DNA of 64,000 nt from Eledone cirrhosa (lineage: Eukaryota). The stretch covers positions 20,460,001 to 20,524,000 of the forward strand of contig OZ024745.1 of the NCBI GenBank assembly GCA_964016885.1, in the 5' to 3' direction. This document shows positions 1,281 to 58,036 of this stretch, piece by piece. Under the pieces are notes generated by a model. That model had not been told where the DNA came from. It did no database searches and was given only the letters and a program-made list of their open reading frames with translations. The first letter of the stretch is position 1; every line of letters starts with the position of its first letter. The translations under genes and the position numbers were made by a program.

Positions 1281-1711
1281 TAGAAATCTCTGAAGAAGAG
1301 ATTTGATCTCGAAATATCAGGACAGATAAATAAATAAGGCAACTCATAACATCTTCTTTCGTCTTACTTTCTTATACATCAATTTCGCATTGTTATGGCC
1401 TTCAAACATTACACCATTTCCTCCCTCTCTCTCTCTGTATATATATGTATGTGTATATATATATATGTATATATATATATATATATATATATATACACAC
1501 ACACACACATATATATATATATATATATATATATATATATATATATATATATATATATATATATATATATATAAGCAAAAGGAATATTCAATTTGTTGGT
1601 AATTCAACAAATATAAATGTTTATAACTGATTCAGAGCACCCGACATATTTTCTGGAGTATAATATTCAATGATATTAAATAAATGGAAACTATATTTAT
1701 AAAACCATATT

Positions 1712-1772
1712 TATTCTATTATATATATTTCAAGGGTACCAAAATTTTGGTACGCTTTCATCAGATAAAATA
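1712..1772 (-). ncRNA. Type I hammerhead ribozyme motif
   Basis: Minus strand: tattttat CTGATGA aagcgtaccaaaattttggtaccctt GAAA tatata TA atagaata. Stems I and II pair; stem III is a palindrome. Confidence 0.8.
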
Positions 1773-1967
1773 CGAAGTTTGTTTTATAAATTTTGACATA
1801 ACCAAGGAAAATACCTTAAAGGTTCAAGTTTTCCTTGGATAGACTATCCAAGGAAAACTTGAACCGTTAAGGTATTTTCCTTGAAATATATATAATAGAA
1901 TAAATATGGTTTTATAAATATAGTTTCCATTTATTTAATATCATTGAATATTATATATATATATATC

Positions 1968-2097
1968 GTCCCTTTACGATCTGAGTTCAAATCCCGCCGA
2001 GGTTGACTTTGCCTTTAATCCTTACGGGGTCGATAACATAAAGTACCAGTAATGCACTGGGTATTTGCTGGCCGTGTGCCTAAAGTAGAAACAGTTA
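1968..2097 (+). mobile_element. tRNA-derived SINE (5'-truncated), the most abundant SINE family in the window
   Basis: B-box-like gagttcaaatccc then gccgaggttgactttgccttt...ggggtcgataa...aagtaccag...gctggccgtgtgcc; many paralogues in the window. Confidence 0.8.
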
Positions 2098-2691
2098 TAT
2101 ATATATATCTTCTTCTCCGGCCGAGTTTACACTGTATATATATATATATATATATAAATACACACACACACACAGACACGCGCACACACACACACACACA
2201 CACATACACACACACACACACACACACACACACACACACACACACACACACACACACACACACACACACACACACACACACACATATATATATATATATA
2301 TATAAATTCATTATTATCTTCCAATATTTAAGAATTTATCTATATCGAAAAGTTTTGAACTTTCCATCTTTAAAGCGATAATATTGATACATTTGATAAT
2401 ATTGATACATTTTAATGCATTACTCTTTATCCAGATACAAAAACCAAATTGAAAAAATATATATATATATACTGACATCGTTTAAATCATTAAAACACTT
2501 AAAATAGTTGAAATTTTAGTAAACTAATTTTTTCCTGTTAAAAGCAGCTATAAGGAAGTTAAAGATATTGCGATAAACAATAGACAAAAATAACCTTCAG
2601 TTGATATATATATATATACATCTTTCTCTCTCTCTCTCTCTCTCTCTCTCTCTCTCTCTCTATATATATATATATATATATATATATATAT

Positions 2692-3528
2692 AAACAATTA
2701 AGTTAAAAATGTACATCTACATATGCATACTGAAATACTAGTGTGTATATGAATACACACACGTATACATATGTAGGTGTACCAAGTCTTTCACTGGTCG
2801 CTTTACAGTGAGCGGCCCAGCTATTCTGTATGTAAACACACAGACAAACCGGTTTTTAGAGTCATACTGGTTTTTCGGGGGAACACCTTCCCCCTATTCT
2901 CCAGAAAGCCAGACAAGGAATATTGAACTAGTTTCGTTGCAATATTTACCTATCTACCGGCCTTTCTGGAGAATTGTAAAAGCACATATCGTTATATGCT
3001 TTTTCTATGAAAATTAGTAGTGGGCAGACTAATTTGCATAGAGTGTGAGTACGCACCGGTTCAGCGGAGACGATAAAAACAAATAACGAAACGAAATTAA
3101 ATTTCGTTTCGTTTGTAACTCACTTTTGTATGACTGACGCTTAAACATGTGCTTTTACAATACTCCAGAAAGGCCGGTAGATAGGTAAATATTGCTGATG
3201 AGTTGTAACAACAACGAAACTAGTTCAATATTCCTTGTCTGGCTTTCTGGAGAATAGGGGGAAGGTGTTCCCCCGAAAAACCAGTATGACTCTAAAAACC
3301 GGTTTGTCTGTGTGTTTACATACAGAATAGCTGGGCCGCTCACTGTAAAGCGACCAGTGAAAGACTTGGTACACCTACATATGTATACGTGTGTGTATTC
3401 ATATACACACTAGTATTTCAGTATGCATATGTAGATGTACATTTTTAACTTAATTGTTTAAGCGTCAGTCATACAAAAGTGAGTTACAAACGAAACGAAA
3501 TTTAATTTCGTTTCGTTATTTGTTTTTA
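2692..3528. mobile_element. Fold-back hammerhead-bearing element in (TA)n (Penelope pseudo-LTR-like)
   Basis: 2692-2987 is the reverse complement of about 3147-3460; 3076-3148 and 3456-3528 are about 73-bp inverted repeats; (TA)n on both sides. Confidence 0.75.
3188..3231 (+). ncRNA. Type I hammerhead ribozyme, intact
   Basis: aatattg CTGATGA gttgt-aaca-acaac GAAA ctag TT caatatt: perfect 7-bp stem I, 5-bp stem II, palindromic CTAG stem III. Confidence 0.9.
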
Positions 3529-54431: not shown

Positions 54432-56100
54432 TATATGAAACTGATATACATATATATATATACATATATATCAAATATATTTGATATATACATACATATA
54501 CATCAAACTGAAATTCAGGTAGAATCAGGGAAAAAATCCAATGTAGGAATCCATGGAACTGGATTTTTACCCGGGTTCTACCTGAACTTCCACTTGGATA
54601 TCTTTTCGGATCACTGGAGTCACTCATTGCGTTTTGCTTTATACCAATAAGCGCGGTATACAATACAATGTATGTTTACATCTTTCATGTACAACTAATG
54701 TGGTTAACTACTACATACACCTAACTTCATTTGACTATGCAAGAATTGGTATAACCTCATCATGGTATTTCATAAAGACATACTTATTAAGTTCTCTCAG
54801 CAACTATGATAAAAACTAGTTGAATCTAGACGATGGCTTTAACCAAATCGATTTTACTCTGTGAATGCTAACAGCCATGGCGAGGTTTTAACTATGTATA
54901 TTAACCATGTTTATAAATATATTAACAAACTTAATCTCATATGAAATATGTCTCTGTAATATGTTTGTGTGTGTGTGTATATATATATATATATATATAT
55001 ATATATATATATATATATATATATATATATATATATATATATATATATATATATATGTTTGTATATATATATATGTATATATTTATATATTTTTATATAT
55101 ATGTTTTGTATATATATATATATATATATATATATATATATATATATATATATATATATATATATATATCTATATATGTATGTATATATATATATGTATA
55201 TATATATACTTGCAACTCGTTTAACCATCTTTTGGTCTTATATTATGTATATATATATATATATATATATATATATATATATATATATATATATCTGTAA
55301 ATATATATGCATATATATATATTTACATATATATATATATATCTTAGTACATATATATATTTGTATATATATATATATATATATATATATATATATATAT
55401 ATATATATATATATGTATATATATATATATATATATATATATATATATATATATATATATATATATATATATATATATAAACATACATACATATATATAT
55501 ATATATATATATATATATGTCTAAGTGTACAAACACATATACATGCACATGCACGCACACATTATATATATATATATATATATATAAATATATATACACA
55601 TATATATATATTTATGTTCATATGTTTAAGGATGCCAAAATAATAGATGAAAATCTCTCTGTCATTTCGTATTCCCGTTGCACTATACATAACCTACACA
55701 TCGTGTCTCATTGGTTACTACTATTTGTAAACAAGACTATTTCAGTAACGTATTCTCTGCCTAAGGAAAACATGCGTATATCTCTACATATATACACGTT
55801 ACAGTGTGTATATATATATATATATATATATATATATACATTAATGTAGAAATCTCAGTGTGCAGGATATTAGATTAGAAGGAAAAAGAAACCATTAGAC
55901 GACAAATGGAGAGGTTTTCAGCTTCATGATAGGATTATGCAAGTGTATATGTATATATGGATGTGTGTGAGTGTGTTTACGAACATGTGTGTATATATAT
56001 ATATAAATATATATAGATACATATACATATACATCTCTCTCTCTCTCTCTCTCTCTATATATATATATATATATATATATTTTTAAAAAGTTGGCAGGTA

Positions 56101-56160
56101 AACAGTGAACTGTACTGATGAAGGGTAATACCCAGAAACATTACTGTCTGCAGTTCTGTT
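56101..56160 (+). ncRNA. Type I hammerhead with long stem I and a true stem III
   Basis: aacag-t-gaactgta CTGATGA a-gggt-aat-accc-a GAAA ca-ttac-tg TC tgcagttctgtt. Confidence 0.75.
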
Positions 56161-56713
56161 TACATGACAACAGAAGAGCAAGAATGAGGGGCTCATTCTA
56201 CTGACATGGCTTTAAAAATGAGGCGTGTTTGCATAATTGCAAACGAATCGAATATTATTATTAATATTCGAAAAACACAGATTACATTTATATATATATA
56301 TATATATATATATATATATATATATATATATATATATATATATATATATATATATATATATATATATATATATATATATATATATATATATATATATATA
56401 TATATATATATATATATATATATATATATATATATATATTAGGTATAGGATTATCCTAGATGTAGTAATGGTTAATTACTACACTGGATATATATATATA
56501 TATATATATAAAGGATAATAAAATATGTTTATAGGTAATCCAATACAATTGTTAGACTGAAAATAAATCCCCTTTTTTTGTACTGTTGACCAATTTATTC
56601 TCCACTTTTTCAATTATATATATATATATATATATATATATATATATATATATATATATATATATATATATATATATATATATATATATATATATATATT
56701 ATATATATATATA

Positions 56714-56768
56714 TATTATGTGCATTTCTAAGGCATCCAATATGTGATTGATACGATTTCGTCAGACA
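56714..56768 (-). ncRNA. Hammerhead motif running directly into (TA)n
   Basis: Minus strand: tgt CTGACGA aatcgtatcaat-cacat-attggatgcctta GAAA tgcaca TA atatata. Confidence 0.6.
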
Positions 56769-57765
56769 GCCATTATGTAAATATAAACACTGTGATATTT
56801 TCGGGGTGAGTTTCTCCGAAGTTGTCACCACAAGTTCGACAAACTATGAATCTTGTTAAAGAATTCTCTTGCTAGCTCCACCCTGGGCATGTCCACCTCG
56901 ATCATTGTTTGAATACATATTTCCTACGATCGTTTCTCATCATTTTATCCGCCATTATATGATTAGAGGATTATTTGACCAATGTGGGTTTAGAACGCAG
57001 GACCTTGTGAGTGGAGAGCGAACTCAATGTTGTATAACTAACGATACCATTACTATTACAGACTCATATATATTAGGTCTGAATATAATTGTTTCTACTT
57101 TTGGCACAAGGCCACTAATTATCCCAGTGCATTACTGGTACTATATTTTATCGACCCCGTAAAGATGAAAAGCAACTTTATCTCGGCGGGATTTGAACAT
57201 TAGTCGTGAATATAATGGAATCAAATTCCAATTCCTACTGTCCCCCTCACTCTTGCTCTCCCTTTCTCTCACTATTTTGACCTATTAAGGTAATTTCAAT
57301 ATAATAAGAGTCACCCAGATGGAATGAGTTGTAAATTATTGGCACCGGGTTAAGTAAAAAGCTATAAATCTAGTACCAAGTGATTGTAAAACCCAGTATG
57401 TCAGTAGGGGGGTTTATGGTTTCATCAAGTGTGTTATATAGGTGTGGGGGTGATAAGAGTTGTTGTTCCAAGTAGAACAATGACAGCAACCACAACCACA
57501 ACAACAACAATAATAGCAATGACAACAACAAGAGCTACAATAATATGAACAGCGTGGTGGTGGACAAGTATGAGAAATATGATACTTATTCGATCTTAGA
57601 ATAGTTCAAGTAGTTCTCTTCTTCAAAGTGGTCTCAGCCCGCCTCTTTCTAATATAGTCACAGTCTACTATCCCAAGTATCGAGTACTCTTTTGAAGAAT
57701 GAATACTGTTTTAATACTGGTTTAATACTAATATATATATATATATATATATATATATATATATA

Positions 57766-58036
57766 TGTAGATAAATCTACCAAGAGTTTACGGTAGTGTC
57801 CAATCCGTATGAAGAACTCAATGTATTCCGGATATCATGGAAAGAAGAGATGTAATGAAGATCCACTTTCGGTGAAAGATAAACGGTATACAGAGTCAAG
57901 ATAAAATATTAAACAAATAATGAATAAACAATTCCTTATATTAAACAAAAAAACAAAAAAAGTTCATTATTTCAAATAATGAACTTTTTTTGTTTAATAT
58001 AAGGAATTGTTTATTCATTATTTGTTTAATATTTTA
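57766..58036. mobile_element. Paralogue of 29117-29600 ending in a palindrome centred at 57973
   Basis: 57766-57840 matches 29117-29190; 57900-57972 is the reverse complement of 57974-58036. Confidence 0.7.

Follow-up and report, generated by a model that had tools for sequence, protein, structure and literature searches.

Hammerhead-bearing Penelope-like ends in the TA tracts of Eledone cirrhosa, and a tail hairpin that may position one of two proposed priming sites

The closest described relatives of the sequences considered here are the Penelope-like elements (PLEs) of the Hydra clade, which bear hammerhead ribozymes, target (TA)n and include Hydra-1_Obim of Octopus bimaculoides (Craig et al. 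2021, PMC8557442; what is said of this and the other cited papers refers to the accessible part of their text). The window, a 64,000-nucleotide stretch of Eledone cirrhosa DNA (assembly GCA_964016885.1, contig OZ024745.1, positions 20,460,001 to 20,524,000), has 34% GC and 198 TA tracts of at least 12 nt, and a first-pass annotation listed in it 20 hammerhead motifs outside a tandem array of 310-nt units, ascribing them to mini-elements of unrelated families. The elements behind the largest group of these motifs share with the published Hydra clade one sole open reading frame (ORF) that encodes reverse transcriptase (RT) and GIY-YIG endonuclease, with RWK-type, DKT, CxCX5C, CxxC and CxH motifs, a 3′-proximal hammerhead, (TA)n insertion, inverted truncated copies and a tail at one end only. 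They differ from it in comprising about ten divergent families (36-47% protein identity among the four compared) with young intact copies, in their length of 3.5-4 kb with a 3′ untranslated region (UTR) often of 1.0-1.3 kb, and in tails of 60-170 nt as against the published 30-40. The one-end tail is noted qualitatively in PMC8557442, whose accessible text mentions neither copy numbers nor the rule that pairs a long end with a short one, nor the tail hairpin. Of its six consensus sequences Hydra-2_Amil, Hydra-1_Ajap and Hydra-2_Ajap visibly have the hairpin by eye, and the other three have it partially or not at all.

A second group of elements is like the Neptune-type PLEs in its GxKF, DKG and RYxDD motifs, CX2-5CxxC linker, CCHH-type endonuclease and hammerhead after the ORF, the distinction being a ribozyme with a U3-A8 core and CCGG stem III and, in two families, a different small hairpin. 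The ribozymes themselves resemble the minimal hammerheads described from PLEs of metazoans (Cervera and de la Pena 2014, PMC4209133) in being of type I with an extra base between positions 9 and 10.1, a palindromic helix III and U3-A8 variants, and in occurring as many families per genome, mostly as single motifs from truncated elements; unlike those, some families here have a stem II of up to 50-110 nt or a stem III of 15-17 nt. Non-coding tandem units of 310, 440 and 466 nt with one type I hammerhead each are akin to the animal retrozymes without long terminal repeats (PMC7229834; bioRxiv 10.64898/2026.07.22.740005), but only two of the 20 listed motifs fit, and the units here also lie in TA with long and short ends. 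For the insertion reaction the best comparison is Poseidon of Anolis carolinensis (Frangieh et al. 2024, PMC11167929): its tail is delimited by RT initiation at two internal sites, the target is cut and, in vitro, extended on both strands, and the ribozyme is dispensable for insertion. Its start sites are in an AC-rich stem-loop inside the ORF and are called non-homologous to the target, whereas here the short site precedes a clade-wide hairpin by 6-9 nt and shares 2-3 nt with the tract.

The motifs are very probably type I hammerheads in the 3′ ends of several PLE families within (TA)n, and TA-targeting, ribozyme-bearing ends of this sort are already known in kind. Taken as a whole, an explanation that combines PLE identity with likely target-primed reverse transcription (TPRT) at two sites, the nearer positioned by a hairpin, is held with good confidence.

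Motifs, tracts and parent elements

A strict type I descriptor finds four motifs outside the array and 17 within it. A scored version, tolerating one core change, bulges and a 3-8 pair that is C-G or U-A, recovers 15 of the 20 noted positions at a score of at least 8, with one extra weak match at 13431, unlisted in the first pass and probably due to chance. The motifs at 14148, 29395, 38934, 52859 and 54357 were mis-parsed by a looser rescue scan and were identified by eye and placed by exact match. Hammerhead-derived sequence is thus present at all 20 positions, well formed at 13 (1712, 3188, 3909, 15335, 16940, 29395, 30243, 30354, 30851, 40476, 43526, 53884 and 56101) and decayed at seven: U16.1 is changed at 9738, stem II is unpaired at 14148, 38423 has A13C, stem I is broken at 38934, 52859 has C3G, 54357 has A6G, and TA replaces part of stem I at 56714. 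Stem III, seen in the first pass as mostly self-complementary, is a perfect palindrome in 15.

The type I core, CUGANGA (or its U3-A8 form) with GAAA, UH and stems I-III, occurs far above its frequency in shuffled sequence. At a score of at least 13 there are 13 matches outside the array as against means of 0.28 in whole-sequence shuffles and 0.39 in repeat-preserving dinucleotide shuffles (100 of each; maxima 2 and 3), and none in the reversed window sequence; the control proposed with the first-pass annotation thus did not yield a similar density. Loose thresholds do give about two shuffled matches per window, and one AT satellite alone gave 17 false matches, but with these controls, genome patterns 9- to more than 300-fold over their reversed counterparts and matches that form families with fixed ends, the notion of chance matches in AT-rich repetitive DNA is refuted and its probability is negligible. 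Among the 150 of 345 Rfam matches listed no hammerhead family reached its gathering score, HH9 being the only one present, at 3177-3248 with 38.6 as against 52 bits; ranked by E-value, the matches are mainly of microsatellites to microRNA models.

The proposed coupling to (TA)n is borne out, and it is polar. With perfect-core, array-terminal matches, read strand-aware, a TA tract within 200 nt downstream of the predicted cut is found for 11 of 14 in the window (background 24%; upstream count 4), 45 of 55 in 400 kb of flanks (background 18%; upstream count 13) and 39 of 52 in 58 spaced 10-kb stretches of the genome (background 18%; upstream 14 of 52), the last without stretch L050, an AT satellite that gives false matches. 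An undirected test of distance to TA is weak in the window, half of all unique sites there being no more than 300 nt from a tract; 17 of the 20 motifs are within TA-bounded islands of less than 850 nt. Over the 58 stretches the counts of ribozymes and of tracts are correlated (Spearman 0.54), 19 TA-poor stretches having two matches and the other 39 having 52. Known element ends, taken from other loci, edge 116 of the 486 tracts in this sample (24%) and 15 (3%) of them after shuffling; the library of ends is incomplete, and about three quarters of the tracts have no recognised end.

Instead of targeting TA tracts the elements could create them, by telomerase-like repeat addition or by slippage at their ends. 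The correlation in numbers and the proportion of tracts, at least a fifth, that touch an element end suit such a course; even so it is improbable, as 8 of the 11 truncated copies of the half-ribozyme family (introduced below) that are not inverted have TA at their truncated 5′ side too, most tracts are without a recognised end (as far as the incomplete library goes) and (TA)n targeting is reported for the Hydra clade (PMC8557442). Tracts may grow after insertion. At loci L196, L198, L202 and L204, five to eleven ribozyme-bearing inserts of different families are stacked in 6-10 kb with TA between each, as if each insertion leaves fresh targets.

The first-pass inference that many islands between tracts are ribozyme-bearing PLE ends holds, with ORFs upstream in long copies, and its mini-elements of unrelated families prove to be mostly 5′-truncated, usually inverted end pairs of full-length elements. 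Nine of the 20 motifs are from the Hydra clade (five by clear ORF link, two by sparse links plus the tail hairpin, two by the hairpin), three are Neptune-type (one by ORF, two by kinship), two are of a family with stem III G(AA)C and two are retrozyme-like. The range allowed for ORF linkage was wider than 1.2 kb, a limit at which families with long 3′ UTRs are missed. Widely spaced inverted pairs of the TATATA/TATGTA and TGCGCA families enclose RT-GIY-YIG ORFs, the CAATTG family has such an ORF just upstream of its hammerhead, including a fragment in the window at 52432-52638, and long copies of Hydra families A, B and T, of the CAATTG family and of the half-ribozyme family have the ORF upstream of the same hammerhead. 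The open frames at L185 (821 aa) and L260 (786 aa) have RW[RT], DKT, CxCX5C, YRDD, CxxC..E and CxH; as in the Hydra clade there is one ORF with RT followed by C-terminal GIY-YIG, no CCHH by eye, a 3′-proximal hammerhead and a (TA)n insertion site. The repeat unit, 3.56 kb in L260 and about 3.9 kb in family T, exceeds the Hydra length of under 3 kb, a tendency and not a defining limit. Pfam gave no RT or GIY-YIG match for the L185 and L260 proteins, and the best named protein relative, at 41%, is from Argonauta hians. Family T retains an unbroken 821-aa frame, with 98-100% identity, in about 60 of 86 scored copies. The insertion structure is that of PLEs, with direct pseudo-long terminal repeats (pLTRs; L260, L075), an inverted 5′-truncated copy and a tail at one end.

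The commonest island of the window, missed in the first pass and present as nine arms, holds only the 3′ half of a hammerhead that is of the U3-A8 kind and has a stem III of 17 nt. Its parent is L260, 50 kb beyond the window, where an intact Hydra ORF lies between two pLTRs and is preceded by a short inverted copy; genome-wide this half-ribozyme family has 54,574 exact 3′ halves and 5,390 whole motifs, so that about 90% are halves.

As to the Neptune-type elements, 9 of 12 loci have the U3-A8 CCGG motif downstream of a 775-aa ORF, at a distance of 1.0-1.35 kb. At L376 this ORF has GLKF, DKG, a CX4CxxC linker, RVT_1 and, after the RT, GIY-YIG with CCHH by eye, thus the GxKF, DKG, CX2-5CxxC and CCHH-type endonuclease of Neptune; no solved structure was matched by its sequence. 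The G(AA)C family, likened to Neptune from its endonuclease alone and with Neptune and Nematis not separated by a tree, has GIY-YIG with CX4CxxC about 200 nt upstream of the hammerhead. Its open frames, up to about 1,280 aa, are the longest of any of the families, and many of its copies are 98-99% identical (C1:301390759-301391382 and others).

Quite different would be islands that are self-standing non-autonomous mini-elements or retrozymes, amplified as fixed units via circular RNAs. A minority does look the part: the 310-nt array, the 466-nt CTAG unit and the 440-nt unit at 56101 are short tandems with no ORF seen, such units have been described (PMC7229834; bioRxiv 10.64898/2026.07.22.740005), and among CTAG, CGCG and 56101 types, tandems of 310-540 nt with no linked ORF, the short non-coding retrozyme unit with one hammerhead is matched by those of 310, 440 and 466 nt only. 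In the main families, however, the arms cover an unbroken range of lengths, from tens of bases up to 4-5 kb, and reach into the RT-endonuclease ORFs. For families A, B and T and the CAATTG, CCGG and half-ribozyme families amplification as fixed units is thereby refuted, and as the general account it is decidedly improbable.

Two ends, inverted pairs and a tail hairpin

Hydra families A-D and T end about 50 and about 140 nt past the ribozyme cut; the two ends are at 75 and 141 nt in the CCGG family, 155 and 218 in the G(AA)C family and 70 and 207 in the 29395 family. In all, elements end 15-250 nt after the cut, the motif at 56714 alone ending at it, and the idea that ribozyme-made RNA ends (UAUA) prime on TA was rejected for this reason. 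Of 38 Hydra-type inverted pairs with both ends classifiable and no TA between them, 36 have one long and one short end, two are short-short and none is long-long (P=3e-9 against 50%). No earlier description of this rule was found in print, where the one-end tail had been tied to two internal RT start sites (PMC11167929). Arms are more alike within a pair than across insertions; in family A, 13 of 16 are identical as against 0.8%.

In the Hydra families a hairpin lies between the two ends, in the form RCUC-stem-loop, 2-nt 3′ bulge, GAGY-RCU. The CCGG, G(AA)C, CTAG and CGCG families lack it. The short end is 6-9 nt before it in 80 of 101 copies, while the distance of that end from the cut varies over 16-59 nt. 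Over 24 diverse copies 95% of cells pair, as against no more than 60% with slid controls, and both sides have changed in 23 cells where 8.0 are expected, none of 500 shuffles reaching 23. The free inner pairs form in 21, 21, 17 and 15 of 27 as against 17.0, 14.0, 10.2 and 11.6 with shuffling, and with a bulge of 1 nt the same pairs form in 0-12 of 27. Among Hydra-type loci from marine metagenomes 64 of 77 reach the ORF end and 37 of these have a hammerhead downstream; where the tail extends at least 110 nt past the cut the hairpin is present in 15 of 23, at 41-61 nt past the cut, as against 0.4% of shuffled sequences. The hairpin has no Rfam match and no description of it was found in the literature, most subscription papers lying outside the reach of the search. 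In 85 of 101 copies the short end has 2 nt or more in common with the tract, and for long ends the overlap is mostly 2-3 nt; at both ends it is TA or TAT.

A rival scheme has a single priming event at the long site followed by fold-back or template switching, the short end being a stall at the hairpin or GIY-YIG resolution beside it. One long and one short end are thereby explained without invoking a second RT; near symmetry is seen in about half of 45 pairs, with arms often identical, the tail has been ascribed to endonuclease resolution (PMC8557442), and the D. virilis tail is cited as needed for endonuclease recognition (PMC11167929). Set against this, the short-end arm is the longer one in 9 of the 15 clearly asymmetric pairs, by up to 3 kb, and could not have been copied from the other arm (in the remaining six it is the long-end arm that is longer), and TA microhomology is equal at short and long ends. 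The asymmetric pairs disfavour simple fold-back as the sole route, and single priming, though the most serious competitor, is on present figures rather unlikely.

The tight junctions number 127 in three families (21, 66 and 40), of which all 21, the first 50 and all 40 were read, or 111. Those within 3 nt of the cut are 4, 7 and 2, together 13 of 111, while 6, 17 and 9, together 32 of 111, are centred on the stem III palindrome. The palindrome at 57767-58034, in which long and short tails are joined at the predicted cut site, had been considered as a record of cleavage in vivo, and this is not supported, as junctions do not favour the cut. The lack of cut-site preference agrees with the ribozyme-independent insertion found in vitro (PMC11167929). 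Very short inverted inserts join most often on the stem III palindrome, and this dimer-forming palindrome doubles as joining microhomology.

In the two-site scheme the GIY-YIG endonuclease would cut both strands of a TA tract and each DNA end would pair with UA in the element RNA and prime one complementary DNA (cDNA), one starting at the long site and the other immediately 5′ of the hairpin, the probable anchor of the RT. The two cDNAs would usually stop after 50-300 nt and then join head to head. Any copy that spans the cut comes from RNA that was uncut, or religated, at the ribozyme, which probably acts only in dimers from tandem parent transcripts. The monomers of examples that were folded do not take the hammerhead shape, and this would be expected of motifs assisted by dimerization or protein. 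Because copying would start 15-250 nt downstream of the ribozyme, nearly every abortive insertion keeps the hammerhead and therefore the genome fills with them, most scattered copies being probably inert. Poseidon offers a precedent: in vitro its RT starts at two internal sites and both strands of the target are extended (PMC11167929). Read from sequence, the two-site, hairpin-anchored priming step has about even odds. Slightly below that stands the full proposition, that the clade-specific hairpin may be a ruler on which a dimeric RT docks to prime both ends of the cut TA tract, using two UA sites within a single RNA, and thereby write inverted twins, and that the process is ongoing and has left some 280,000 hammerheads, a comparable number of inverted repeats and at least a fifth of TA tracts touched.

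Several points weigh against the explanation as a whole. The outer four hairpin pairs were imposed by the search, so that only the inner pairs are a free test, and the fourth of these is not significant. Eight of the 23 metagenome tails are without the strict motif, three of them ending in TA first, four having variants by eye and one neither. Microhomology counts are non-independent within a family, the DNA is AT-rich, and among the 85 there are five 10-nt matches, probably mispaired. The sample of pairs is small and partly of pairs chosen for fetching, and the many short, near-symmetric pairs are explained equally well by fold-back copying or later deletion of the palindrome centre. As to clade, the calls are from protein motifs and not from a tree with reference elements, four of the 20 window motifs have no assignment, and family C and the 54357 type are called Hydra on the hairpin alone.

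Outside the Hydra clade a hairpin of another kind occurs in two CCGG families, whose short ends lie at 75 and 124 nt and are followed by it after 11 nt. In Neptune-type tails (the L376 family, and 14052-14150 and 38263-38420 in the window) it is a small GUGU-loop-ACAC structure, 11 nt beyond the short end, which suggests that the ruler idea extends beyond the Hydra clade.

Genome-wide ribozyme load

In the 3.0-Gb genome exact patterns were counted and reversed controls subtracted. Observed and control counts are 146,373 and 16,705 for the pattern with a 6-nt stem III, 105,954 and 6,286 with a 4-nt stem III, 20,704 and 57 for U3-A8 CCGG, 22,441 and 1,836 with an 8-nt stem III and a long stem II, and 5,390 and 2, 2,823 and 0, and 2,978 and 0 for three single-family patterns. 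The summed excess is 281,777 motifs or one per 10.6 kb, from patterns that ignore stems I and II, take in arrays and some satellite sequence, count some motifs twice and overlook stems of other lengths. Independently, the structure-tested sample puts the number of dispersed motifs at 290,000 (95% interval 190,000-400,000), or 340,000 with arrays. The first-pass figure of one motif per 3 kb is thus right locally, for a window rich in TA, and does not carry over to the genome, where the average is one per about 11 kb; its exceptional ribozyme load stands as to number, at about 280,000, and needs qualifying as to ribozymes, for these are sequences only, seven of the 20 being decayed and the commonest family being about 90% halves.

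The highest count found in print is 126,247 motifs in axolotl (PMC7229834), and minimal hammerheads have been given as 2,000-9,000 per genome (PMC4209133). The repeat annotation of Octopus vulgaris has active Penelope-like families and, in its accessible text, does not use the word hammerhead (PMC13282606). No cephalopod hammerhead census was found in the literature that the search could reach, most subscription papers being beyond it. Schistosoma reportedly has large hammerhead counts. The load of about 280,000 exceeds anything found in print and is the densest ribozyme load found reported.

With so many copies and numerous intact cores the thought arises that ribozymes are kept as working host regulators which cut host transcripts. 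This is very improbable. Intact cores are explained by the youth of the elements, a third or so of the window's motifs (7 of 20) are decayed, the commonest family has its 5,390 whole motifs beside 54,574 halves, the monomer folds tried do not adopt the hammerhead shape, and published motifs of the same kind cleave poorly or need dimers or protein (PMC4209133; PMC11167929).

Individual copies in the window and their wider meaning

Among the copies of Hydra type, that of family B at 1712-1772 (minus strand), intact with stem III TATATA and linked to its ORF via L075 and L034, is the long arm (146 nt to TA) of an inverted island at 1574-1951, the short arm of which begins within stem II near 1879. 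Family D has an intact TATATA copy at 16940-16995 (plus; short end 50 nt) and its decayed relative at 9736-9799 (minus, U16.1 changed; short end 55 nt). The young family T is represented at 40476-40546 (plus), intact with stem III TGCGCA, as the short arm (43 nt) with about 1.2 kb of 3′ UTR, the inverted long arm being at 39109-39290 with its hairpin at 39165-39192. Family C, assigned from its tail hairpin, is at 43526-43587 (minus; intact, TATATA, short end 57 nt), and family A is at 53884-53949 (plus; intact, TATATA, long end 138 nt) with its RCUC..GAGY-RCU hairpin at 53998-54020 (plus), 56 nt past the predicted cut. The A6G motif at 54357-54431 (minus) has stem III TATATA and is of a family with the Hydra hairpin. 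For the CAATTG family the copy at 38931-38974 (minus) has an intact core and a broken stem I, its inverted partner at 39009-39031 being cut off by TA, and the decayed (C3G) copy at 52858-52899 (plus; long end 102 nt) is followed by its RCUC..GAGY-RCU hairpin at 52934-52957 (plus) and preceded by the fragment at 52432-52638 (plus), the C-terminal GIY-YIG part of a Hydra-type ORF (profile positions 602-671, E=2e-13). The half-hammerhead family forms an inverted pair at 4215-4447 (both strands; arms 4248-4270 and 4328-4350, hairpin 4376-4402) and is also at 16691-16739, 29901-29981, 41149-41224 and 52192-52214.

The motif at 30851-30886 (plus; U3-A8, CCGG; at least 20,704 matches) stands at the 3′ end of an element of Neptune type. 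Its decayed relatives are at 14148-14189 (minus; U3-A8, CCGG, stem II unpaired), Neptune-type with 68% identity to it over 101 nt, and at 38423-38461 (minus; U3-A8 with A13C, CCGG). The G(AA)C family is present as an inverted pair at 30034-30543, with the long arm (214 nt) bearing the hammerhead at 30243-30287 (minus) and the short arm (150 nt) that at 30354-30398 (plus).

Retrozyme-like are the intact type I CTAG motif at 3188-3232 (plus; the HH9 match, E=3e-6, below the gathering score), with an inverted partial arm at 2919-2935 and elsewhere a 466-nt tandem unit in which no ORF was seen, and the motif at 56107-56156 (plus), with an 8-bp stem I, a non-palindromic stem III, at least 2,823 copies, tandem spacing of about 440 nt and no linked ORF. 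The array at 33013-38222 (both strands), with 17 hammerheads in 310-nt units, is also retrozyme-like and is outside the finding; it consists of two perfect tandem blocks (100% matches) in opposite orientation and obeys the long-short rule, with ends of 164 and about 130 nt. A similar inverted array is in the flank and others are on C1 and C3.

The four unassigned motifs are at 3909-3991 (minus; type I, core intact, stem II long, stem III CCGCGG), at 15335-15380 (minus; U3-A8, stem III CGTTCG), of a multi-copy family with no ORF among the loci examined and a second partial copy at 14509-14520, at 56717-56770 (minus), where the core is intact and TA replaces the 3′ strand of stem I at the cut site, and at 29395-29537 (plus), a type I motif whose stem II region measures about 100 nt, with stem III CGATCG, a 10-bp stem I and a short end of 70 nt. 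The last is of a family of at least 2,978 copies, to which the palindrome without a ribozyme at 57767-58034 (both strands) also belongs. Loop II of the 29395 motif contains a 37-nt piece of an abundant repeat like a short interspersed element, which has copies at 28130-28310, 31290-31475, 54125-54315 and 57088-57200 and often adjoins TA tracts. Two more hammerhead-like motifs of one family, missed in the first pass, are at 32915 (in 32890-32930, minus) and 43047 (in 43040-43090, plus), with a 15-nt stem III and U4A in the core, and one relative of theirs is 0.9 kb downstream of a Hydra ORF. A TA-bounded inverted island at 12900-13550 and a related fragment at 53476-53560, with no hammerhead recognisable by eye, are possibly tails of another Penelope-like family. 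At about 44000-49550 (minus) there is a nearly full-length element like a long interspersed element, presumably L1/Tx1-like, in which two ORFs, a region for an endonuclease and the YADD motif of a reverse transcriptase can be made out by eye.

PLEs are the closest retroelement relatives of telomerase, and how they choose start sites and make inverted inserts has been named as the next task (PMC8557442), one Poseidon element having been reconstituted. The published findings met with do not extend to a load of this size, to the long-short rule or to the tail hairpin, and these make the priming mechanism testable: hairpin, 6-9 nt spacing, TA microhomology and the rule give sharp predictions, and intact young ORFs exist with which to test them. 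From a census perspective the count shows that a large class of ribozymes, with long stems II or III or U3-A8 cores, is being missed, and much of the seemingly unique DNA between TA tracts here is retroelement debris. Inverted pairs, if transcribed, would form double-stranded RNA, and, speculatively, this could be of relevance to cephalopod RNA editing and silencing.

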